64,000 bases of DNA from Pseudomonadota bacterium (GCA_043820105.1 JBDREC010000095.1:28898-92897); one strand, 5' to 3'; numbered from the stretch's first letter, positions 1,682 through 15,035 are shown. Program-made: numbers and translations. Notes: a model not told the origin generated them from the letters alone.

Positions 1682-3241
1682 ATGCCTTATAACATAATAA
1701 ATCCTGATACAGCATATAAAATTCAAATGATAGCGGTTATTCTTTGCACACTGGTTTTATTTACAAAAATATTTTTTTCTAAAATCAAAACAACAAATTA
1801 TAAATTTGCTCTAATTAAAAAAGTGTTAAATAGTTTAATCGTTATATTTGTTTTGTTTATGTCTATAAACTATTTCTATATTTCAAGAGCCAGCGAACAT
1901 TATATTCATAGATGGGATATGTATCACACTGTTATTGGATCAAAATACTTCAATGAACTTGGTTATACAAAGCTATATGAATGCACTTTATTTTATAATG
2001 AAAAAACCCTTCATTTTTTTACGCCTCCCGCAAGAGCAAGAAATTTATTAACTTTAAATTATGAGACCACCAAAAAACTTTTAAAAAAAAGCAATTGCAA
2101 TTCTATCTTTTCACAAGAGCGTCAAAAGGAATTTATAAATGATTTAAAAACATTCAATGATATTACATATCCAGAGTTTTGGAAAGAAATATTCTTAGAC
2201 AAGGGCTATAATGGCTCGCCATTTTACACCTTTCTAATCTCAAATATTACTAACGTTGTACCAATAAGTTATAATTCCTTATTGGCCTTATCTTGTATAG
2301 ATATTGTCCTTGTTTTAATTGCCTTTACATTTGTGCTTTGGGCCTTTGGATATAAAATGGCTCTTTTATCTTTTATATTTTTCACGCTCAACTTCCCCAA
2401 CAGATATGTTCATATGGGAGCATCAATATTACGTTTTGATTATATTGCTTATACAATAATTGCTTTATGTCTTTATCGAAAAAACAAATTCAAAACATCA
2501 GCCTTTTTATTGGCCCTTGCCTCTGTCATAAGAATGTTTCCTGTTTTATTTGCCTTAGGTTTTATTATCAAAGCCTTAATGGAATTTTCAAAAACAAAAA
2601 AAATCAAAATAAAATATTTAAATTTCATCCTATCATTTATAATCTCACTAGCTTTGCTTCTTGGGGCTTCGCTTACTTTTGGACCAGGAGTTAAAGCCTG
2701 GCAAAAGTTCTTTACAAACATGAAAATTCATAACCAACAAAGTGCGGGCTTTAGAATTGGTTTTAAAAATCTTTTCATGTTTAAGGGTGAAATAACAAAG
2801 AAAGACCGTTTTGTTTCTTATCAAAAAAAGGCCAATGCCTTTGCAAAAGTAAAAGTCTATTTTTATATATGTTTTGCTATCTTTTTGATCCTGGCTTTTA
2901 TGATTATGAATAAATTAGAAGACCTTGATGCTTCAATTTTGTTTGGGGTTTTTACTTTTTATCTCTACTTCTGTTCAACACGATATTATTACTCAATTCT
3001 TGTTCTCTTAATCCTATTTCTCTACAAATATAGAAACGAACTATTCTCACAAGTCTCAACTCTACTTCTATTTCTAATATCTGCGATCGCTTTTGTGGCA
3101 AACTACTACAACAACTTTGATCCTTTCATATATAATTATCTTTTATCTTTCATGCTTTTGGTCTATTTCTTATATCTAATTATATTCTTAATACTTAAGT
3201 TTAAAGTTTGGAGGTTTTTGAATCCTAAAATTAATTATTAA
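1682..3241 (+). CDS. polytopic integral membrane protein, tandem paralog 2
   Basis: 519-aa ORF 21 nt downstream of paralog 1. Carries SKYFNELGYTKLYE and LDKGYNGSPFY motifs and many TM helices. Its stop codon lies inside the AATTATT heptamer array. Confidence 0.6.
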   Translation: MPYNIINPDTAYKIQMIAVILCTLVLFTKIFFSKIKTTNYKFALIKKVLNSLIVIFVLFMSINYFYISRASEHYIHRWDMYHTVIGSKYFNELGYTKLYECTLFYNEKTLHFFTPPARARNLLTLNYETTKKLLKKSNCNSIFSQERQKEFINDLKTFNDITYPEFWKEIFLDKGYNGSPFYTFLISNITNVVPISYNSLLALSCIDIVLVLIAFTFVLWAFGYKMALLSFIFFTLNFPNRYVHMGASILRFDYIAYTIIALCLYRKNKFKTSAFLLALASVIRMFPVLFALGFIIKALMEFSKTKKIKIKYLNFILSFIISLALLLGASLTFGPGVKAWQKFFTNMKIHNQQSAGFRIGFKNLFMFKGEITKKDRFVSYQKKANAFAKVKVYFYICFAIFLILAFMIMNKLEDLDASILFGVFTFYLYFCSTRYYYSILVLLILFLYKYRNELFSQVSTLLLFLISAIAFVANYYNNFDPFIYNYLLSFMLLVYFLYLIIFLILKFKVWRFLNPKINY

Positions 3242-3819: not shown

Positions 3820-4812
3820 CTAAACATGCAATTCAATACAATCTTCATCCTCAAGCACATAATCCTTATTCACCCTCTGCCCATCATATTTTCCTTCACC
3901 CCAAATGCAGGCAAACTTCATTTTATCAACAAATTCTTTGTGAACAGATTTTGCAAAGTCTAGAAGTGTTGATCCTCTTTTGAAAATAAATGGCTGACTT
4001 CTATCTGGTTTTTTCCCACGAGCTTTTGAATAAACTCTTACAATGTTCATAAGTTCAAATATCCTTCTTGGAATTGTACCAATTGTTTTTTCATCCAAAA
4101 AACTTACAGGATAAAGATCAAAATCTTTGCCCAACTCTTTTTCGAAAAGTTCGAAAATTACTTCATCTGGATCAAGATCCATTTTAGTTATAAATATAAT
4201 AGTTTTTTTATATGCAAGGGAAAGCGAGGTTTCTTCAGGTTCATTTTTTCCAAAAAGAATCATCTTCTTTTCTTTTAAAAGCTCTTTGCACTTTTCAAAG
4301 TCACCTAAAGTATCTGTTGCTCCCATATCTAAAAACAAAATTACAATATCAGAATTCCTAATATTATTAAAAACCCAATATTCGCAATATTCATCAGACA
4401 AAGGGGGAAGATCAATAAGTTGAAACTGCACATTTTCAAATTGCAGCATTCCAGCAAGTGGCGCTCTGGTTGTAAAAGCAAATTCAGCGATTTCAGGAGA
4501 AGCGTTTGTAGATAAATCAACAAAGCTAGATTTTCCTGAGTTGGGTAAGCCAACGAGAGCAATTTGGGCTGCCCCTTCTTTTTTAATATGAAACTTAGCA
4601 TCAGAACCTGAACTTTTGCCAGATGATTTTTCACTTTGGTTTTTGAACTTAGAAAGCTTTTTCCTAAGATCTGCTTGCATTTTATCAGTTCCCTTATGCT
4701 TAGGAATCACAGCAAGCATGTGTTCAAGGGCCGCAATCTTTTCTTCATTAGTAGCTGCTTTTTTAAATGCTTCTTCTGCTTGTTTGTAAATTGGGGTTAG
4801 GTTTGCTGGCAT
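3820..4812 (-). CDS. DRG/Rbg-type (COG1163-like) GTPase with C-terminal TGS domain
   Basis: 330 aa. G1 is GLPNSGKSS and G4 is TKMD. The C-terminal TGS-like segment RVYSKARGKKPD...WGEGKYDGQRVNKDYVLEDEDCIELH and the N-terminal helical region resemble eukaryotic/archaeal DRG. G3 reads DLPP instead of DxxG. Confidence 0.75.
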   Translation of the reverse strand: MPANLTPIYKQAEEAFKKAATNEEKIAALEHMLAVIPKHKGTDKMQADLRKKLSKFKNQSEKSSGKSSGSDAKFHIKKEGAAQIALVGLPNSGKSSFVDLSTNASPEIAEFAFTTRAPLAGMLQFENVQFQLIDLPPLSDEYCEYWVFNNIRNSDIVILFLDMGATDTLGDFEKCKELLKEKKMILFGKNEPEETSLSLAYKKTIIFITKMDLDPDEVIFELFEKELGKDFDLYPVSFLDEKTIGTIPRRIFELMNIVRVYSKARGKKPDRSQPFIFKRGSTLLDFAKSVHKEFVDKMKFACIWGEGKYDGQRVNKDYVLEDEDCIELHV

Positions 4813-5249: not shown

Positions 5250-5618
5250 TTATCCTGAAAAGATTATTTTTATTTCTTCAAGGTAGAGTTTAAAAATTTC
5301 TAAATATTCACTTTCTTCTAAACCAAAATAATCATGAGTGCCAATGTTCCTAGCTTCAATAAACCTAAACCACAACTTAACTTCTGAAATTTTTCCAATC
5401 TTAGCTGCTTTTCTAATTGCCTCTTTGGGAGAAGGTGCCTCTAACCCTTCATCTTCTACAATTTTTTTTAATTCTTTCCATGCATATTCTATAGAAATTT
5501 CAAAGGTTTTTGCTAAAGCTAAAAAAGCAAAATGACTCTCATTGCCATCTTTTTTGCTTTCGTAGAACTTAAATGCATTTTTAAAATCTACAATAGATTC
5601 ATTAAATTTATTATTCAT
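5250..5618 (-). CDS. HEPN-domain protein (HI0074-family nucleotidyltransferase substrate-binding protein), toxin of a HEPN/MNT pair
   Basis: 122 aa with an R-x4-H motif (RNIGTH) near the C-terminus. Sits 1 nt downstream of the MNT gene. Confidence 0.8.
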   Translation of the reverse strand: MNNKFNESIVDFKNAFKFYESKKDGNESHFAFLALAKTFEISIEYAWKELKKIVEDEGLEAPSPKEAIRKAAKIGKISEVKLWFRFIEARNIGTHDYFGLEESEYLEIFKLYLEEIKIIFSG

Positions 5619-5619
5619 A

Positions 5620-6192
5620 TTATTTTCCTTCTTTTAATTGGGCAATTTTTAGCAAAAACCTCTTAAAAGCCATTTTTTTTCCTTTTAGAAAAGTTATTGA
5701 TTCATCTAGCTCTTTTATAAACCAGTCAGGTGCTGCATCTAAATTAATAAGATCAATTTCAATTTCCAAATTATCTGCTAAATCACCTACTATAGATTTC
5801 ATGTCTAAAAAAGTTATTCCATTTATTTTCTTTTCATTTGATAAAACTCCCAAGTCGCAATCAGAATATCTAGTAGATGTTCCCTTTGCTCTTGATCCTA
5901 ATAGTACGATACTCGTGTCAGGAAATTTTTTCAATAATTCGTCAATTATTAAACTAATCCCAAATTCTTCAAGTGTTATCTTTGCTTCACTTTCATCAAT
6001 AAGCTCAAAGGGACTAACATTTAAGGATTTTGCTATAGCTAAGAACTGATCACTAAATATCTTCTTTTTTCCTGTTAAATAATCATAAATAGTATTTCGA
6101 TGAATTTTTGTGCGTTTAGAGAATTGAGAAATAGAAAGAAAGCCGAGTCTAATTAACTGTATTCGGAATTTTTTTTCGTTGAATGTATACAT
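5620..6192 (-). CDS. XRE-type HTH fused to a minimal nucleotidyltransferase (MNT), antitoxin of the HEPN/MNT pair
   Basis: GSRAKGTSTRYSDCDLGV matches the G-S-x(9-13)-D-x-D NTase motif. The N-terminal ISQFSKRTKIHRNTIYDYLTG segment is HTH-like. The ORF-track start at 6252 adds an implausible hydrophobic 20-aa extension that overlaps the candidate operator, so ATG 6192 is preferred. Confidence 0.75.
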   Translation of the reverse strand: MYTFNEKKFRIQLIRLGFLSISQFSKRTKIHRNTIYDYLTGKKKIFSDQFLAIAKSLNVSPFELIDESEAKITLEEFGISLIIDELLKKFPDTSIVLLGSRAKGTSTRYSDCDLGVLSNEKKINGITFLDMKSIVGDLADNLEIEIDLINLDAAPDWFIKELDESITFLKGKKMAFKRFLLKIAQLKEGK

Positions 6193-6236
6193 AACAATAA
6201 TAATAGCATACCAGATCAAATATTGCAATATATTAT

Positions 6237-6264
6237 TGTACAGCATGTACACAAAACAAGTACA
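6237..6264 (-). promoter_or_regulatory. candidate operator of the HTH-MNT/HEPN operon (TGTACA repeats)
   Basis: TGTACAGCATGTACA (6237-6251) plus a third GTACA at 6260-6264, 45-70 nt upstream of ATG 6192. On the minus strand it lies between TTGTTT and TAATAT hexamers. Confidence 0.35.
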
Positions 6265-6399
6265 TCACAAATTGACATATTAAAATCATTATTCTTTTTA
6301 ATATAATTTTTTTTACATCTTTAGCAAAGAAAGAGTCTTTTTAAAATAATCACTAAAGTTAACAACATGTTTTCATATCTCTTTTTACGGTTCTTTGTT

Positions 6400-6454: not shown

Positions 6455-9400
6455 ATGAAAAAGCAAAATATTATTGTACTATTTTCTTCAATTTTAATCT
6501 TAATCATAATTTTAAATCATAATCTAAGAGCTCAAGATGCTTGCACTGATTTACAAACATATAGATCCTCATTTGTTGTAGATTCATCAGAAAAATATGA
6601 CAAATGGAATATGGGTGCATTAAGTGAAATGATTTCTGAACCTGGTTTAATTGATAAATGGAGGAGCTGGTCATATGAAACATGGTGGGGAACAGATCAC
6701 ACTTCTGGTGGAAACAGATATGATGATGTGATTTCTCCTGCATGTAGAATTATGCTAGCCAAGGTTGCTACTGCTGAAATGGATAAATATATTTCCCTTC
6801 AAGAAGCCTTTTGCCAAGATGGAAGCACTCAGAAACATAGATGTGAAGGCGAAGCTGAGCTTAAAAAAATTAAGACACAGCAAGCAAAACTAAAAGCCCA
6901 AACTAATAAAATGGCCCAAGTAATAAGCTCACAATTCGGAAGCCTCCCTCCAATGGTTCAAAAAAGTAATACTGATTCAAATGGAAATGCTGCTAAATAT
7001 TATGACTTTGATTGCTCAAATTCAAGATGGTGCTCAAAACAACAATCTGGTGTTAACACCGCTGCTGAAACAGTTACAAGCTCAAGACAAGAAATTAATC
7101 ATAATAATAATCAAGTTCTAGAACAAATGCAAAGATCAAGTTCAAGCTCAAGAACTTGTCCCAATGAAGCTGTTATAGAATTAAGCAATGAAATCCTTAA
7201 TGATATTCCTTATACTCCAAGCAAAGAAAAAAAGCATTTTAGAGACCTTTGCAAGCAAGATCCTATTGGTCCACAAATACAAAGTTATGGTTATAAAATG
7301 TCATATGATCCTGATGGCGATTTGGCGGCAACAGGAAGCTCCTTATTGGGGGCTGTTTCAGAACTTGGGGGAATTTATGGTAAAGCTGCAAGAATAGCAG
7401 GTTTTGACACTCATATTGATTCAATAAACACTGGACAAAAAAGGTCCACCTTAACTTCATTTAAAGAAACACTAATGAAAAACCAATGGGCATATATGAA
7501 TACTGAAGAAAGAAATGCTGCTCAATCGACATTAGAAAAAAGTGGTCTTTCAGGGGATGAAAGTTTATCAATGACGGCACCATATGTTGGAGACAATAAA
7601 AGAGGAACAGCGAATCATATGTCATATTTTAAAGATTTATCAAAACTTGACCCTTCAAAACCAGATGATTTTATTCCTTATATGTCATCATCTTTATTTA
7701 AAAAACATATAGCAGATAAGGCTGATAATGGTGAAAAATGGATCCCTGAAGCAGCAAAACTTTGTATTATCTTAGATAAAGAAGAAAACATTGATGAAAT
7801 GGGTAAAATGGCAAGAGAAATGGTCCTTGGAACAGTAATTTCAGGAATCCTAATGTCAGCAACAGCAGCCTCGCGCGGATCAAGCTATGCAACAACAACA
7901 GCAATTGGCATTGGTGTAGATTCCTCTATCTTTGCCAAATCTTATATGACTGCAAGGTCTGACTATAGGGAGGCACTAGAAAAAAGACACCTAGTTGGTG
8001 ATGAACATATTGAGGAAATGAGACAACGATTGGAAAATGCAGAAAGTGAAGCTCTCTGGGGAATGGGATTTTCAATTGCAATAAATGGTATTACTGGAGG
8101 TGGCGGAGCAATGTTTACCCAAAACATGGGAAGAAGCTTAATAAAAAATGTTAGTGGAGAATTCACAGAAAAAGGCGCAAAAGCAGCTGAAGACTATTTA
8201 AGAAATGAATTAAAAAGGAGTCTTTGGGGAAAAGAACTAATAGGAGCAATGAAAAAGTTTTTAAATGAGGCCGGCACTGGCGCAATAGGAAAATTAAAGA
8301 AAAGTCTTGTTAAATATTTGAAGAAAAAAGGAATACCAACAGATCAAGCAGAAGAAGTTTTTAACATCATAGTAAAAGTGCTAAAAGATGAAGCAGAAGA
8401 AGGTCTTGAACTGGCTTCAAAAGCTAGCACAGCGCAAACAAGTTCAAGAGCAAGCGCTACGATGTCAAGACCAGCTATCCAGGGAGCTGCTCATGAGCTT
8501 ACCACTAAAAATATCGATGATTTGGCGAGTGCCCGAATGGCAAGATCTGTTTATCCAGTAAGAGAAGTTTTTGAAAATGCTAGCTTAGGACAAAAAGAAA
8601 GATTAGCAAGAGCAGCAGCTGATTTAGGAATGAATAAATTTTCAAGAAAACAAAGCGCTGCTTTAATCGCAGCTCATAATATTGGTTCAAATGAATCAGA
8701 ATCAGTTTTTCGATATACATCAAAACAACTAAGTGAAAAATTAAATATATTAAAAAATGGAGGCTTTACTTTAAAAGAAGCAAAAATGCTAATGCAAAAA
8801 GGTTATGCAGGAAGTCTTGGAACTCAAAATAAAATTGTAGATCTTGGGGGAGGACTTAAAATAAATACTAAAAAAGTAGATAAGCATTATAGTTACACAC
8901 TTAAAAATCCAAAAATAGTAGGAAAAAGAGAACATAAGCTAATAAAAGCAGCTATTTTAGAAAAAGCAAGACAGGCATTTGATTCAACTGTAATCGCTGA
9001 TTCATCAGAAATGGCTTTAAGAAAAGGCTTTTTAAAGCAAGTAGACAATTCCGTAGATAAAATGTTTAGTGCTGGCAGATTATCATTTAATTCAATTGAT
9101 GAATTTTCTAAAAAAAGAAAAATATTATGGAATATGTATAAAGATCAACACTCCAAAGCTCTTAAAAAAAGAAAAAGTAGAGTTAAAATTATTGATGTTA
9201 AACATTTCCCAGCAAGTTCAAATCAAACAGGTTCTCAGGCTATAAAAAAAATAGCTAGCTCTAAGGATAATTTAGAACTTGTATTAAAAAAACGATACGA
9301 TGATGCAGTTAGGTATGCTGACGAGAATTGGGAAGAGATATTTGATGACCTTGAACTAGACCTCAAAGGCAAACCCCAAACTAAGCAAAAAGCTAATGAA

Positions 9401-9973
9401 CTTGGTTTATCTAAACATGAGCTAACGGCATTAATGTTATACACTGGATCTAATTTTGAAGATATTAATGGAGCATTAAGAAAAGAAATTAGAACGCAAG
9501 CACCATCCATAACAATGCTACTTGGAAAATCTAAAGAAGAATTAAAAGCATTAAGAACATTAGTTAGCTCAGCATTAAGAAAAATGCCAAGCCAAGAAGG
9601 TCAAGTTTTTAGAGGTCAAAATTACAGAAGAGAATTGATAGAAACCCTTAAACCTGGAGATCTCATGAAAGATCCAGGATACTTCTCAGCATCTACTTCA
9701 TATGATGTAGCTCAAGAATGGTCACAACAATATAAATTGTATAAGCACCCTCAACCAGTCGTATTTAAAATTGACCACAAAGGTGGAAAAAATATTACTG
9801 ATTTTTCATTCAATCCTACTGAAGACGAAGTACTGTTTAGAGACTCTACCGCTTTTAAAGTTTTATCTATTGATAAAAGCGGGAATCCGTGGATAATACA
9901 TATTGAGGAAATTATTAACAACAAACAGAGGCAATTGGCTAATTGGTTTAAGTTATTTGAAGAGGCCGCTTAA
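6455..9973 (+). CDS. secreted multidomain toxin with C-terminal R-S-E ADP-ribosyltransferase (C3/VIP2-like) domain
   Basis: Signal peptide MKKQNIIVLFSSILILIIILNHNLRA/QD. Cys-rich N-terminal region and two hydrophobic/Gly-rich stretches. C-terminal motifs are YTGSNFEDINGALR, VFRGQ, FSASTSY and TEDEVLF. The ORF-track start at 6395 is probably too far upstream (RBS GGGAAGAGA precedes 6455). Confidence 0.85.
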   Translation: MKKQNIIVLFSSILILIIILNHNLRAQDACTDLQTYRSSFVVDSSEKYDKWNMGALSEMISEPGLIDKWRSWSYETWWGTDHTSGGNRYDDVISPACRIMLAKVATAEMDKYISLQEAFCQDGSTQKHRCEGEAELKKIKTQQAKLKAQTNKMAQVISSQFGSLPPMVQKSNTDSNGNAAKYYDFDCSNSRWCSKQQSGVNTAAETVTSSRQEINHNNNQVLEQMQRSSSSSRTCPNEAVIELSNEILNDIPYTPSKEKKHFRDLCKQDPIGPQIQSYGYKMSYDPDGDLAATGSSLLGAVSELGGIYGKAARIAGFDTHIDSINTGQKRSTLTSFKETLMKNQWAYMNTEERNAAQSTLEKSGLSGDESLSMTAPYVGDNKRGTANHMSYFKDLSKLDPSKPDDFIPYMSSSLFKKHIADKADNGEKWIPEAAKLCIILDKEENIDEMGKMAREMVLGTVISGILMSATAASRGSSYATTTAIGIGVDSSIFAKSYMTARSDYREALEKRHLVGDEHIEEMRQRLENAESEALWGMGFSIAINGITGGGGAMFTQNMGRSLIKNVSGEFTEKGAKAAEDYLRNELKRSLWGKELIGAMKKFLNEAGTGAIGKLKKSLVKYLKKKGIPTDQAEEVFNIIVKVLKDEAEEGLELASKASTAQTSSRASATMSRPAIQGAAHELTTKNIDDLASARMARSVYPVREVFENASLGQKERLARAAADLGMNKFSRKQSAALIAAHNIGSNESESVFRYTSKQLSEKLNILKNGGFTLKEAKMLMQKGYAGSLGTQNKIVDLGGGLKINTKKVDKHYSYTLKNPKIVGKREHKLIKAAILEKARQAFDSTVIADSSEMALRKGFLKQVDNSVDKMFSAGRLSFNSIDEFSKKRKILWNMYKDQHSKALKKRKSRVKIIDVKHFPASSNQTGSQAIKKIASSKDNLELVLKKRYDDAVRYADENWEEIFDDLELDLKGKPQTKQKANELGLSKHELTALMLYTGSNFEDINGALRKEIRTQAPSITMLLGKSKEELKALRTLVSSALRKMPSQEGQVFRGQNYRRELIETLKPGDLMKDPGYFSASTSYDVAQEWSQQYKLYKHPQPVVFKIDHKGGKNITDFSFNPTEDEVLFRDSTAFKVLSIDKSGNPWIIHIEEIINNKQRQLANWFKLFEEAA

Positions 9974-10285
9974 ATCTTTTCCTATTTGACTTGAAATCAC
10001 TCTAGTCTATTACAACCACATGGATATAAAAAAACCATTAAAAACTCTAATCCTGAAAAAACTATCAAAACAATCTTTTATTTTTTACTTTAAACTATAG
10101 AAAAAGGATGATAAAACACATACATCTGGCCGATTATCATGACAATCGGCAATAGATCAGAATTTTTTTTATTATACTACTCAAATTAAAAACTTACTAA
10201 CGTTCCAAACGTTTGATATATTAACGTTATGGACGTTAAGACAACAAATAAACTAGGATGCATACAATGCTGAACAAATAGGATT

Positions 10286-10495
10286 TTGCAGTCAAAGGAA
10301 CATGAAATTGATTTTGTAACTTCTGATAATGAATTAATTGAAGTAAAATCGGAAAAGGCTTCTCCAATGGATTTCACATGGTTTAATATAGTTTTTCCTA
10401 ATAAAAGATTAACCGTTATTTGCAAAACACCATTTGAAACTGATACTATCAAAGGAATAACTATTGAAGATTTTTTATTAGATGATGAAAAATAA
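10286..10495 (+). pseudogene. C-terminal remnant of a DUF4143-type AAA+ ATPase gene
   Basis: HEIDFVTSDNELIEVKSEKAS parallels REVDFVVLRNKKPLFAIECKSKNR at the C-terminus of the intact ATPase (12643..13785). No N-terminal P-loop part is present upstream. Confidence 0.5.
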
Positions 10496-10532
10496 ATTTT
10501 GACATCGTTTCAATTCAGTTTATAACAATCCC

Positions 10533-11270
10533 ATGGATATAAAAAAAATAATAAAAGAATATAAATCTGGAAAAATTTCTGAAGAGGCTTGTTTAAAAAA
10601 GCTTAAGGACCTTCCCTATTCTGATCTTGGTTTTGCAAAAATTGATCATCATAGAAAGCATAGAAAGGGAAACTCTGAAGTTATTTATGCTGAAGGCAAA
10701 ACAGCTGATCAAATAATTGCCATTACAAAACAAATGCAATCAACTGGTGAAAATATTTTGGCAACTCGAGTGAGCTCTGAAATATTTGAAGCTGTTTCAA
10801 AAGAAATCAAAAATCTTGAATATAATGAAATAGCAAGGACCTTTACTTATATAAAAACTAAGAAAAGAAAAAAAGGCAATGTTTCTGTAATATGTGCTGG
10901 CACTACAGATTTGCCAGTGGCTTATGAAGCCTGCGTTACAGCTGAATTTTTAGGAAGCAAAGTAACACGGCTTTTTGATGTAGGAGTAGCTGGAATTCAC
11001 AGACTCATTATGAATAAAGTTGTAATTGATAAAGCAAAAGCTTTAATCGTTGTAGCTGGAATGGATGGGGCCTTACCTTCTGTTGTTGGAGGACTTGCAA
11101 AAGTTCCTTTAATAGCCGTTCCAACAAGTGTTGGATATGGAGCAAGCTTTAATGGCGTTGCACCTTTATTAACAATGCTAAACTGCTGCTCACCTGGTGT
11201 AGCTGTTGTTAATATTGATAATGGTTTTGGCGCTGGATATATGGCGCATATGATTAATAGTGGTAAGTAG
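10533..11270 (+). CDS. larB: LarB, pyridinium-3,5-biscarboxylic acid mononucleotide synthase (PurE/AIR-carboxylase-like)
   Basis: 245 aa. Has an N-terminal helical segment, then a PurE-like core (VSVICAGTTDLPVA...VVAGMDGALPSVVGG...VPTSVGYGA). Confidence 0.8.
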   Translation: MDIKKIIKEYKSGKISEEACLKKLKDLPYSDLGFAKIDHHRKHRKGNSEVIYAEGKTADQIIAITKQMQSTGENILATRVSSEIFEAVSKEIKNLEYNEIARTFTYIKTKKRKKGNVSVICAGTTDLPVAYEACVTAEFLGSKVTRLFDVGVAGIHRLIMNKVVIDKAKALIVVAGMDGALPSVVGGLAKVPLIAVPTSVGYGASFNGVAPLLTMLNCCSPGVAVVNIDNGFGAGYMAHMINSGK

Positions 11271-11340
11271 TAAGTCGTAAGTCGTAAGAATAACAACTCA
11301 TCTTCTTACTTACGACCTACAACTTACGACTTACGACTTC
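11262..11340. repeat. GTAAGTC-type heptamer inverted repeat (long hairpin) between larB and larC
   Basis: Left arm is GGTAAGT AGTAAGT CGTAAGT CGTAAGA. A 13-nt loop follows. Right arm is TTCTTAC TTACGAC CTACAAC TTACGAC TTACGAC. The larB stop codon TAG (11268-11270) is inside the left arm. Confidence 0.9.
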
Positions 11341-12546: not shown

Positions 12547-12645
12547 AATTATTATTTATTATTTATTAATTATTGGTTATTTTATAAACCATGTGAACCC
12601 ACAAAATTTTCAATAACCAACAATCAATTTTCAATTCTCAATTTA
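12547..12645. repeat. second copy of the AT-only heptamer hairpin element
   Basis: Left arm is AATTATT ATTTATT ATTTATT AATTATT GGTTATT (12547-12581). The right arm ends in the 26-nt core 12618-12643, identical to 3296-3321. It again lies between convergent gene ends. Confidence 0.85.
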
Positions 12646-13785
12646 AGGCATTCCCAGCTCTTTACAAAACACAGTAAAAGGCAAAACTCTTCCAGTAGTT
12701 TTTTCATTTCCAAAGTCTTTATCTTTTCTATGAACCTGATAGAAATTTGGAATATCAGTTCTTTCTTTAAAATATTTAATATGTGGTGAAATACCTCTAT
12801 TTTTGCTTTTACATTCAATGGCAAATAATGGTTTCTTATTTCTTAAAACTACAAAATCAACTTCTCTTTTGTCAGTATCTCTAATAAACCTTAATTCCAT
12901 TAAATCACCCTCAGTATCTTCAATAAAATGACAATATTTTAAGAGCTGACAGGCAACAAAATTTTCAAATCTATTACCATCATCAGAAACCATGCTCCAG
13001 TCCCAGAAATAAAGTTTCTGTTCTTTTTTGACAGCTCTAATTTTAGGTGCACCAAATGGGGAGATCCTGAAAGTAAGATACATAGAATCTAAGATATCAA
13101 GCCATTTAGCTGCAGTTTGAAAACTTACTTGCAAATCTTCTTTTAAGCTTCCAATAGATAATGGCGAACCAACACGATCAGGTAAACTTTCAACTAAGAG
13201 TTGAATCAAACTAATGTCTTTTACATTTTCAATATCATTGATATCAGTATAAACAACCCTAGTTAACCTTTCTCTTTGCCATCTCTTTTGAGTTTTTTTA
13301 TTTGCAGAAAGAAAAGGTTCAGGAAACCCACCATATTCAAGCAAGGCTTCCATGTCACTATGATTGGGATCTTTATTAAGCTCCATTAATGAAAATGGAT
13401 GTAGTCTATAATAAAAATATCTGCCAAACAAAGAATCACCACCTTTTCTATAATGATCAAGTCTTGCTGAACCGGTTACAATAAATGAAACATCGCTCTT
13501 GTTATAATCATAATGTCCTTTCAATAGATTTCTCCACCGTGAATACTTATGAATTTCATCAAAAATTATTATTTCTTGCTTGGAAGGCAATTCTCCTTTT
13601 ATAATCGAACTTCTTTGGTGCTCAATATCCCAGTTTAAATATGCCTTGTTTTTTTCAGATGGAGGATCTAAAAAACTTAAAGCCAAAGTGGTTTTTCCAA
13701 CTTGCCTTGGGCCACCAATAAAAACCATCTTCTTTTCTATATCTTCATTAATATATGGTTTTAAATACCTAGTCTTTAGAGACAC
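12643..13785 (-). CDS. AAA+ ATPase with C-terminal DUF4143/PD-(D/E)xK-like domain
   Basis: 380 aa. Walker A is GGPRQVGKTT and Walker B-like is IIIFDEIH. The C-terminal segment REVDFVV...AIECK is nuclease-fold-like. Confidence 0.75.
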   Translation of the reverse strand: MSLKTRYLKPYINEDIEKKMVFIGGPRQVGKTTLALSFLDPPSEKNKAYLNWDIEHQRSSIIKGELPSKQEIIIFDEIHKYSRWRNLLKGHYDYNKSDVSFIVTGSARLDHYRKGGDSLFGRYFYYRLHPFSLMELNKDPNHSDMEALLEYGGFPEPFLSANKKTQKRWQRERLTRVVYTDINDIENVKDISLIQLLVESLPDRVGSPLSIGSLKEDLQVSFQTAAKWLDILDSMYLTFRISPFGAPKIRAVKKEQKLYFWDWSMVSDDGNRFENFVACQLLKYCHFIEDTEGDLMELRFIRDTDKREVDFVVLRNKKPLFAIECKSKNRGISPHIKYFKERTDIPNFYQVHRKDKDFGNEKTTGRVLPFTVFCKELGMP

Positions 13786-13988
13786 AAAACCTCCATTAGC
13801 ATTATTAACATAAGTTAATTATACTCATGAGTATTTTTAAGTCAAGTTAATTCTACTAACGCACCCAAGAGCGTGCATAAATGATGTCAATTTTAATATA
13901 ATTTTTACATAAAACTCAATACAAAGCTTTTTTAATATAATTCACTAGCATAACCAGTTGCATTTTAAGTCTTTTCCCCGAAAGACCC

Positions 13989-14566
13989 GTGTGGCATGAA
14001 AATTGGTGCACATCTAAACAAAGTGGCAGAAATAGTAATGAAGAAATAACACAAAGAGCAATTGATGATAATAATAAAAGATATGATGAATTTGAAACAC
14101 AAATAGCCATTCAAGAACATGATAAAATATGCAACCCAAATGCTCTTTCTGACCTTGAGTCCTGGATGATGCTTTTTCAGCAGTAATAGGTTCTTTTAAA
14201 AAATCAAATCCTGACAATAGCTCTCAAATGCTAGCAAGCACCTCATCAAGAAGTGCTGCACATAGTATTGGAATAGGGAACATGGACAATATTGCAACTT
14301 CAAGAATTGCCAGGTCTTCGGTTCCTGTTGAAAAGGTGATGGCAAATGCTGCCCTTGATGAGGCCGACAGGCTAGCTTCCGCTGCAGCTCATATTGGAAA
14401 GAAAAGGCTTTCACAAAAGCAAAGCGCAGCCCTAATAGCTTCTCATCAAGTTGGAGCTGATGAAGGTGGATCAGTTTTTAGATATACCCAAAAGCAGCTT
14501 CAAGAAAAGTATAGGATTTTGACAGATGGCGATTTTACTCATAAAGAAGCAAGGGAAAAAACATAG
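13989..14566 (+). pseudogene. frame-broken, shortened paralog of the toxin gene (N-terminal piece plus conserved helical module)
   Basis: ORF 14228..14566 aligns with toxin residues encoded at about 8415-8815, with roughly 48 of 88 positions identical by eye. ORF 13989..14186 weakly resembles the toxin N-terminal WxExW...C region. The pieces are in different frames, and there is no signal peptide or ART domain. Confidence 0.6.
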
Positions 14567-14568
14567 AA

Positions 14569-14943
14569 ATGCAATTTGAAAATATACCATTTAGATCAGA
14601 CCAAAATGTTCTATTCAAGCGAGACTTTATAGAGGGTCTTAATAATAGTAGAAAGCATTTAACATTTGCAAGTGGCAGTGAAGGTGTAAGCGCTGAAAAT
14701 CACATGATACAGGTTTTAGACATTAGCTATAAAGATTCTGTAGCAAAAGGTCATGTTGAAATTACGGAAGTTGTTTTAGTAGACCAAATGAATAATAATA
14801 AAGTTTATAGGTTTAACAACTTCCAAGAAGCATTAGAATATTTTAACAATACAACTGGAACATTAGTATCTAGTCAATTCATTGACACAACTACAGGGCA
14901 AGCCTTAGGACCTGATGAGGTTTTAAAAAACATAGTAAATTAG
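14569..14943 (+). CDS. hypothetical 124-aa protein, possibly the third fragment of the decayed toxin paralog
   Basis: The ATG lies 2 nt after the stop of the preceding fragment. LFKRDFIEGLNNS..FASG weakly parallels toxin LRKGFLKQVDNS..FSAG. No recognisable domain. Confidence 0.4.
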   Translation: MQFENIPFRSDQNVLFKRDFIEGLNNSRKHLTFASGSEGVSAENHMIQVLDISYKDSVAKGHVEITEVVLVDQMNNNKVYRFNNFQEALEYFNNTTGTLVSSQFIDTTTGQALGPDEVLKNIVN

Positions 14944-15010
14944 GAAGGGACAAGCTCTTCCAATACAATCAAATTATTAATTGCCAATAGTAAATTATCA
15001 ATGAACAATA

Positions 15011-15035
15011 CTTACCACTTACCACTTACCACTTA
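15011..15035. repeat. (CTTACCA)x3.5 heptamer array
   Basis: Perfect tandem CTTACCA CTTACCA CTTACCA CTTA in the spacer upstream of the hemolysin-III gene. Confidence 0.9.

Follow-up and report, generated by a model that had tools for sequence, protein, structure and literature searches.

We analysed a window of 64,000 nucleotides from a Pseudomonadota bacterium (GCA_043820105.1 JBDREC010000095.1:28898-92897; all positions are counted from the first letter of this stretch), and concentrate here on a gene on its plus strand at 6455-9973, an uninterrupted open reading frame (ORF) of 3,519 nt that comprises 1,172 codons plus a stop. We propose, with a probability of roughly 55%, that the gene product is a modular single-chain toxin of polymorphic type that is exported through Sec and whose carrier and junction domain are both new. 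Although an ORF that starts with TTG at 6395 would be the longest possible, the ATG at 6455 appears to be the better start of a complete toxin gene, because it has a Shine-Dalgarno-like box (GGAAGAG) 5 nt to its 5' side and matches, in alignment, Met1 of the sole long homologue, designated P0002.

The predicted protein can be divided into seven consecutive parts, all encoded on the plus strand. Residues 1-26 (6455-6532) resemble a Sec-type signal peptide, with lysines at positions 2 and 3, a top 10-residue Kyte-Doolittle mean of 3.23, a matching leader in P0002, and a predicted cleavage site (LRA/QD) directly before a CTD motif, conserved in P0002. There follows a Cys-rich N-terminal domain (residues 27-437, 6533-7765) with cysteines at positions 30, 97, 120, 130, 187, 193, 235 and 266 plus C437; because all nine are kept in P0002, and from the partition of cysteines described below, this domain is presumed to be disulfide-bonded and extracytoplasmic, and its AlphaFold2 (AF2) prediction is locally confident at residues ~100-190 and 330-410 only. 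The third part is a hydrophobic Gly/Ala-rich element (residues 455-554, 7817-8116), with helices at ~456-473, 479-495 and 533-554 that are predicted by AF2 at low confidence, ending in NGITGGGG. A basic K/E-rich helical spacer (residues 555-702, 8117-8560) leads to a five-helix junction module (residues 703-788, 8561-8818), which is the last part conserved with P0002 and in which R716, H741, K762 and G783 are invariant. Beyond the module lie a cargo-specific basic linker (residues 789-933, 8819-9253), for which no homologue was found, and a mono-ADP-ribosyltransferase (ART) domain (residues 934-1156, 9254-9922); the net charge across residues 791-975 is about +15. An earlier note on this DNA, made from the sequence before any search, had described a signal peptide, eight cysteines in the first 270 or so residues, two hydrophobic stretches at 7820-7935 and 8051-8116 and a long K/E-rich helical region, and all of these are present, the two stretches corresponding to residues 456-494 and 533-554 and both being conserved in P0002.

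The ART domain matches PF01129 (NAD:arginine ADP-ribosyltransferase) over residues 934-1156 (E 7.5e-17, 61.8 bits against a cutoff of 22.3) and PF03496 (ADPrib_exo_Tox) over residues 977-1141 (E 4.3e-8, 33.2 bits against a cutoff of 23.4), and the C-terminal 382 residues alone score 65.1 and 36.1 bits with the two models respectively; a profile search for the second of these families had been proposed by the earlier note as a check on its assignment. The best match in a sequence search of solved structures is the Vis toxin of Vibrio splendidus (4xzj, E 9.6e-11), with weaker matches to XopAI, ExoT and Tre1, an ART of type VI secretion (T6SS; 6dre, E 0.03). The catalytic residues of Vis, which has an E-x-E motif, are Arg117, Glu189 and Glu191 (PMC7824265). 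In the alignment R1053 of the VFRGQ motif (codon 9611-9613) pairs with the 'RG' at position 116 of the Vis chain, that is, Arg117 in the literature numbering; S1080-T1081-S1082 (9692-9700) form the same S-T-S motif in both proteins, and E1123-D-E1125 (9821-9829) stands opposite Glu189 and Glu191 and is followed directly by VLF, the aligned Vis stretch reading EAEVLF. An E-x-E motif goes with an arginine-type acceptor. The Arg codon and the EDE motif had been placed correctly in the earlier note, whereas the FSASTSY motif occupies 9683-9703 and the interval of 9686-9700 given for it there spans SASTS only.

In tblastn searches against annotated plasmids and phages the protein finds matches only in the ART domain, at 27-29% identity, to genes of P. 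syringae plasmids annotated as 'ADP-ribosyltransferase domain-containing' and to phage head-protein ART fusions. The NCBIfam XopAI equivalog model NF041404 gives 40.4 bits against a cutoff of 300, with kinship limited to the ART domain, and word-indexed homology searches with the whole protein, the ART domain alone or the module alignment returned the window protein itself and nothing else. The Pfam matches, the alignment with Vis and the plasmid and phage relatives bear out the earlier assignment, and they predict, far beyond chance, that the C-terminus is a mono-ART with the Arg/Ser-Thr-Ser/Glu (R-S-E) signature and of the E-x-E, arginine type. Because of the low identities and the XopAI score below its cutoff, the domain appears to join the R-S-E, E-x-E clade as a new and distant member without being an orthologue of any named toxin.

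The remainder of the protein is of a different kind. An exhaustive HMMER search with residues 1-940 against 1.84 billion protein representatives recovered 67 proteins, of which one is the query and one (P0003) is another ORF of the window; these are metagenomic representatives clustered at 50% identity, some of them probably truncated gene calls. The only long homologue, P0002 (1,215 aa, from an NCBI metagenome-assembled genome labelled 'Pseudomonadota bacterium'), is 36% identical over residues 5-792 (E 4e-136) and shares the leader, the nine cysteines, both hydrophobic stretches and many further blocks. The homology breaks off after the sequence ...GYAGS at about residue 790, right behind the module, and the C-termini are unrelated. 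We therefore refer to residues 1-790 as the chassis, which in these data would have a single long homologue among the 1.84 billion representatives, and for which no relatives were found in two scans of 185,579 species-representative genomes or in one metagenome scan. Retention of the cysteines, the hydrophobic stretches and the invariant residues of the module at 36% identity argues for purifying selection. The C-terminus of P0002 carries an HSHP-x7-S-x2-D motif and a match to Prok-JAB; as this match is below threshold (E 0.0097) and a PDB search with this segment was empty, we did not accept it as a JAB/MPN domain. The N-terminal part of the window protein has no match in Pfam, NCBIfam or the PDB, and the Cys-rich domain has none by Foldseek, so that the earlier description of about 1,000 N-terminal residues that resemble nothing stands as far as these collections are concerned, although it overlooked a module that recurs elsewhere.

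That module is the most widely shared part of the protein, as 65 proteins of the HMMER set match only at residues ~703-788. It is about 85 residues long and follows the consensus N..L.D..R...A...LG..L...Q..A...AH.VG...G...YT...L.EK..IL..AGF...E...LM..GIAG, its invariant residues being R, H, K and G; proteins that range from 112 to 3,703 residues contain it in one copy or in two to six. From an alignment of 45 sequences AF2 predicts a five-helix fold (mean predicted local distance difference test score, pLDDT, 88.9; predicted template modelling score, pTM, 0.81). Searches of the PDB gave no sequence match and a best Foldseek E of 1.7, with template modelling (TM) scores of at most 0.42; no Pfam or NCBIfam model covers the module, and literature searches found no description of it. 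We consider it to be a candidate new domain at the junction where carrier and cargo recombine, and infer that it serves as a recombination junction, as a trafficking adaptor or as both. A second class of module proteins (P0012, P0014, P0017, P0019, P0036, P0059 and P0065) has no signal peptide and next to no cysteine, and several of these, of more than 1,000 aa, have the module inside the first ~200 residues; they may be substrates of another export route. One further member, P0004 (1,550 aa, at L001 8001-12653), combines three modules with an AnkX-like Fic domain, and its gene sits inside an Na+-NQR cluster, between nqrA-F and apbE/nqrM.

Evidence for recombination at the module comes from splitting each protein before its first and after its last module and comparing the pieces all against all. 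At least six pairs share an N-terminal piece and have unrelated C-terminal pieces (P0011/P0037, 53% identical over 1,194 aa; P0010/P0062; P0023/P0066; P0001/P0002, of which the first is the window protein; P0044/P0067; P0007/P0032), and five or more show the converse, a shared C-terminal piece behind unrelated N-terminal pieces (P0004 with P0015, P0030, P0034 and P0040; P0024/P0047; P0037/P0045; P0020/P0051; P0007/P0047). A conserved N-terminal region is thus joined to variable C-terminal domains among homologues, and this swapping on both sides of the module, as judged from the alignments, would be the defining pattern of polymorphic toxins. Only a few cargoes can be recognised, namely a Fic domain in five proteins, one of which scores best with the Legionella effector AnkX, the ART of the window protein and the sub-threshold JAB-like motif of P0002.

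The distribution of cysteines provides further insight into how the carrier may be arranged. A signal-peptide-like leader is found in at least 35 of 66 members, with a median of 8 cysteines in the first 300 residues, as against a median of 0 in members that lack the leader. Among the 37 leader-bearing members, 33 have a hydrophobic segment that separates the Cys-rich part from the first module, in many cases just 30-60 residues N-terminal of the module; C-terminal of it such a segment is almost never seen. When these segments are aligned, two cysteines spaced by about 11 residues are followed by a hydrophobic stretch rich in Gly and Ala, frequently with an internal Glu or Asp (…LAE.VPAFLTGG…), and this in turn by a basic tail; the second stretch of the window protein (…NGITGGGGA…) is similar to the LTGG part of this family element, and the element of the window protein is weakly hydrophobic, with a Kyte-Doolittle maximum of 1.37. 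Before the element cysteine makes up 2.59% of residues (318 of 12,277) and after it 0.07% (20 of 29,052), compared with a background of 1.30% in the housekeeping proteins of the window. There is no cysteine in the last 735 residues of the window protein (P about 7e-5), nor in 3,162 residues of P0009. Avoidance of cysteine is expected where a polypeptide crosses an oxidising compartment and has to remain unfolded or thread through a channel, and a depletion of this extent is not what would be expected of a resident cytoplasmic domain. The partition and the element lend indirect, though family-wide, support to the idea, raised in the earlier note, of a protein that may combine binding, membrane insertion or translocation and a warhead on one chain, in the manner of AB toxins.

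In the mechanism that we favour, a cleavable signal peptide would carry the protein through the inner membrane, after which the disulfide-rich domain (residues 27-437) would fold extracytoplasmically and probably act in anchoring or binding. The Gly/Ala-rich element (residues 455-554) would form the border to the Cys-free spacer, module and cargo, and may itself act in membrane insertion or translocation. Within a cell that is not the producer, the ART cargo would then draw on NAD+ to modify a protein or, possibly, a different acceptor, and we infer that delivery into such a cell takes place.

Several observations weigh against this proposal, and part of them can be accommodated by a different topology, in which the product is a type-I inner-membrane protein that has its signal peptide cleaved, a Cys-rich domain that senses or binds on the periplasmic side, the element as a stop-transfer anchor and the module and ART in the cytoplasm of the producer; the ART would then be a regulated output that serves signalling, self-arrest or abortive defence, or else a toxin kept in store until its release. 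The position of the element, consistently between Cys-rich region and module in the 33 of 37 members noted above, is what such an anchor would predict. So is the basic tail that follows it, as the module-side flank is the more positive one in 24 proteins against 6 (Wilcoxon p = 0.0006; p = 0.014 for K+R alone) and, by the positive-inside rule, would place the C-terminus in the cytoplasm if the element is a stop-transfer anchor. The Kyte-Doolittle value of the element reaches ~1.9-2.0 in P0002, P0030, P0040 and P0057. Sec export in a diderm ends in the periplasm, and neither an outer-membrane export step nor a partner gene was identified among the window ORFs scanned; moreover, export, cleavage and topology are all deduced from sequence. 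With regard to the cargo, AF2 gives a pLDDT of only ~45-69 over residues 976-1172, a model too poor for superposing the predicted catalytic site and one that reflects the lack of alignment depth, and a Foldseek search of the PDB with the full-length prediction returned nothing significant. The majority of cargoes in the family have no Pfam match and many resemble helical or low-complexity sequence more than enzymes, so that a toxin function need not be required of every member.

Notwithstanding these points, residence of the ART in the producer leaves the scarcity of C-terminal cysteine (0.07% against a background of 1.30%, and none in the 3,162 residues of P0009) unexplained, and the segments are Gly/Ala-rich, often with Glu or Asp inside, with the low maximum of 1.37 in the window protein itself. 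An active ART, Fic or JAB enzyme in the cytoplasm would also be hazardous without an antidote gene nearby, and the shuffling of varied cargoes is the pattern of offensive effectors. Because of the cysteine depletion, the missing antidote gene and the offensive-looking shuffling we rate the membrane-anchored alternative below the exported toxin and consider it an unlikely yet serious rival.

The surroundings of the gene bear on the question of immunity and of the target. The gap of about 560 bp that follows the gene (9974-10532) contains only ORFs of 69 aa or fewer, none with a family match, and no immunity, ARH or macro-domain gene, in agreement with the earlier note, which had also called the gap decayed DNA. 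The gap is real, and decay is borne out in part, in that it holds a diverged duplicate of the 5' end of larB: a 59-nt direct repeat at 9985-10043 and 10498-10556, 75% identical and 513 bp apart, copies the sequence just 5' of larB together with its first codons including the start codon (CATGGATATAAAAAAA). The repeat suggests that DNA was inserted or duplicated long ago in the interval separating the toxin gene from larB. Within the repeat-flanked DNA, the 69-aa ORF at 10286-10495 has no family match, and the interpretation that it is what is left of a DUF4143 ATPase found no support. At the six related loci that were recovered, module genes stand alone amid housekeeping genes and no neighbour is conserved, and in four of the six the next downstream gene is convergent.

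About 4 kb downstream of the toxin gene there are two collinear plus-strand fragments (13941-14566) of a chassis, which the earlier note had passed over. The first (13941-14183) corresponds to chassis positions ~197-231, with an E of 0.005 in a tiny search space, and the second (14159-14563) to chassis positions ~702-809, where it is 53-54% identical to residues 676-777 and ends inside the module; the latter is represented in the protein database by P0003, an ORF of 112 aa. Given the truncation inside the module and the collinear N-terminal remnant upstream, the fragments are most simply read as a decayed paralogue that has lost its leader and ~470 internal residues, rather than as a usable orphan cassette. 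Beginning 2 nt past the stop of the truncated module ORF is an ORF of 124 aa (14569-14943, plus strand), with no Pfam or NCBIfam match and nothing related to it in the 67-protein family, which could be a leftover cargo, an immunity gene or unrelated.

Downstream of the toxin gene the neighbours are larB, larC and a gene for an AAA_14/DUF4143 ATPase, the last of these on the minus strand (12643-13785) between larC and the decayed paralogue. Directly upstream and divergent (5250-6252, minus strand) is a toxin-antitoxin-like pair, consisting of a protein with a helix-turn-helix and a nucleotidyltransferase domain (MNT-type) and a HepT/nucleotidyltransferase-substrate-binding (HEPN-type) protein. 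This pair, the ATPase and the pseudogene mark the region from ~5 to 15 kb as a small plasticity zone in what is otherwise a housekeeping region.

The absence of an immunity gene led to the suggestion, in the earlier note, that the target is non-self and possibly eukaryotic, a grazer or host. An alternative with the same architecture is that the protein is aimed at competing or prey bacteria and that the immunity gene lies elsewhere, was lost or is not needed since kin are not exposed. Shuffling of carrier and cargo at a junction domain is a hallmark of interbacterial polymorphic toxins, among whose cargoes a survey lists R-S-E ARTs (Tox-ART-RSE) and also Tox-JAB (PMC3482391). The decayed second copy nearby, the placement of the gene in the small plasticity zone that also holds the toxin-antitoxin pair and the AAA_14/DUF4143 ATPase, and the weak similarity to the antibacterial ART Tre1 (6dre, E 0.03) all fit such a role. 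However, no co-oriented small ORF with a family match stands behind the gene, the next gene is convergent in four of the six related contexts, the best-scoring relatives of the ART are eukaryote-directed or host-associated (Vis, XopAI, ExoT and the P. syringae plasmid ARTs), and one Fic cargo has its top score with AnkX of Legionella. According to the same survey, a lack of immunity genes goes with host-directed toxins, and the versions with Amoebophilus APD-type domains have none (PMC3482391). A bacterial target is unlikely in our estimation.

The decay next to the gene also raises the possibility that the gene itself is a relic without function: an orphan ORF within an island under degradation, with ART motifs that survive by chance or because inactivation was recent. 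Apart from one distant homologue the protein is unique at both the 90% and the 50% cluster level, a clearly decayed paralogue lies 4 kb away and the DNA on the downstream flank is duplicated and degraded. Set against this are a frame of 3,519 nt that is fully open despite a guanine-plus-cytosine (GC) content of 32%, at which stops arise easily, catalytic residues that are all intact, and the purifying selection to which the comparison with the 36%-identical homologue points; we regard a relic as very improbable.

The rest of the window is made up of housekeeping genes, including those for hydrogenase maturation, RNase J, MltA, the dcw cluster, a SpoVD/FtsI-type penicillin-binding protein and enolase, among others. 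Genes of a Gram-negative-type envelope are present, the genome has a GC content of ~32%, and the housekeeping proteins form singleton clusters at 90% identity. No secretion-system gene was found among the window ORFs scanned. Three further features of the window are recorded here. Runs of a hexamer (AAGTCGTAAGTCGTAAG / ACTTACCACTTACCACTTACC) between larB and larC (11259-11339) and 3' of the 124-aa ORF (15010-15033) form near-perfect inverted repeats and may be repetitive extragenic palindromic (REP)-like elements or terminators. At 23-1660 and 1682-3241 (plus strand) there are tandem genes for polytopic membrane proteins of 545 and 519 aa, without Pfam or NCBIfam match and paralogue-like in their common SKYFNELGY motif near the N-terminus, which look like an undescribed membrane family, possibly glycosyltransferase-like. 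The gene at 3820-4812 (minus strand) encodes a 330-aa GTPase with MMR_HSR1 followed by a C-terminal TGS domain, a DRG-like layout that is unusual in a bacterial genome, and it scores far under the Obg and YchF equivalog cutoffs. This GTPase at first hinted at an archaeal origin of the window, a reading that was abandoned in view of the dcw cluster, MltA and the SpoVD/FtsI-type penicillin-binding protein.

How does the exported toxin that we favour compare with known systems? As regards the warhead, Vis and the other members of the PF01129 group (HopU1/HopO1, XopAI and the vertebrate ecto-ARTs) are nearest, Vis being the best match of the cargo with Arg, S-T-S and E-x-E at the same positions; but Vis is a single-domain protein of 28 kDa, and XopAI and HopO1 are effectors of the type III secretion system, whereas the ART of the window makes up the C-terminal 240 residues of a Sec-signal protein of 1,172 aa. 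The R-S-E signature and the PF03496 match are shared with C2-I, iota Ia, VIP2 and C3. Unlike VIP2 and Ia, however, the window protein has a single ART stretch and not a duplicated ART fold, and no separate PA-like B component, such as the binary C2, iota and VIP1/VIP2 toxins have, was found among the window ORFs scanned. C3 is a protein of ~25 kDa with a Q-x-E motif, while the window protein has E-D-E and is about five times larger. By these comparisons the protein would be neither a binary toxin of the C2, iota or VIP2 kind, nor C3-type, nor an orthologue of XopAI.

With respect to the carrier, the closest parallel is the Sec-dependent class of polymorphic toxins, for which a signal peptide is the sole signature and the lineage-specific N-terminal domains are MafB-N, MicroscillaN and the Amoebophilus domains APD1 and APD2 (Zhang et al. 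2012, PMC3482391). The window protein resembles these Sec-dependent ('T2SS', type II secretion system) toxins in its signal peptide, its lineage-restricted N-terminal region, the variable cargoes of its family and the lack of signature neighbours. It differs in that none of the four domains is detected in it, that it has no lipobox, and that its chassis contains the hydrophobic element and an 85-aa module of which two to six copies are possible; MafB systems, moreover, have adjacent immunity genes and the window protein has none. The short conserved segment right before a variable toxin, where paralogue homology stops and the cargo has apparently been swapped, recalls the pre-toxin junctions PT-VENN of CdiA, PT-HINT, PT-TG and DUF637, although the module resembles none of them in sequence, profile or fold, is sometimes repeated or near the N-terminus, and has no context of type V (T5SS), type VI or type VII (T7SS) secretion. 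In contrast to classical polymorphic toxin loci, there is no intact orphan toxin-immunity cassette, only the truncated pseudogene. With the whole protein, no Pfam or NCBIfam match at E <= 1 was obtained to PAAR, Rhs/YD, LXG, WXG, TPS/FilH, VENN, MafB-N, MuF or PVC domains; the earlier note was right that PAAR, Rhs, LXG and VENN markers are missing, though this holds for known markers only, as the protein carries the conserved chassis and, at its end, the module.

If the proposed order of functions is correct, the protein also resembles diphtheria toxin, the large clostridial toxins and MARTX in carrying binding, translocation and catalysis on one chain, and, like single-chain AB toxins, it has hydrophobic helices that separate a stable domain from a cargo which would have to unfold. 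The order would be binding, putative translocation and catalytic domain, as opposed to catalytic, translocation and receptor domain in diphtheria toxin, and the giant relatives with repeated modules recall multi-effector MARTX toxins. No homology to single-chain AB toxins was found, and neither an autoprocessing protease (CPD) nor a furin-type nick site was identified in the protein. Because carrier and cargo are exchanged as in polymorphic toxins while no known trafficking domain and no adjacent immunity gene accompany them, we conclude that the warhead and the evolutionary logic are known ones, while the carrier and its junction domain are new and the hydrophobic element at the boundary is distinctive.

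A more far-reaching reading, which is tentative and on balance doubtful, is that the module, the Cys pair and the hydrophobic element together constitute a self-contained delivery platform, so far unrecognised, of sparsely sampled Gram-negative lineages, which would thread cargo into a eukaryotic grazer, a host or a prey cell with neither a dedicated secretion machine nor an immunity gene. After Sec export the disulfide-locked N-terminal domain would bind the target cell and the element would open a path through a membrane for a Cys-free, module-tagged cargo of up to ~3,000 residues, an ART in this case and Fic, JAB-like or many unknown domains elsewhere. If this is true, the module would be a new trafficking marker, as useful as MIX, LXG or PAAR for the mining of effector domains.

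The ART warhead is an ordinary, if distant, member of its clade, and the novelty lies in the carrier. The 65 clusters that share the module are almost wholly unannotated, some of them with proteins of more than 3,000 residues, and if the module marks exported cargo it would offer a handle on new toxin and effector domains in uncultured bacteria. The border between Cys-rich and Cys-free sequence at a conserved element makes for a testable hypothesis, namely that one polypeptide may deliver a large cargo without a dedicated secretion system.

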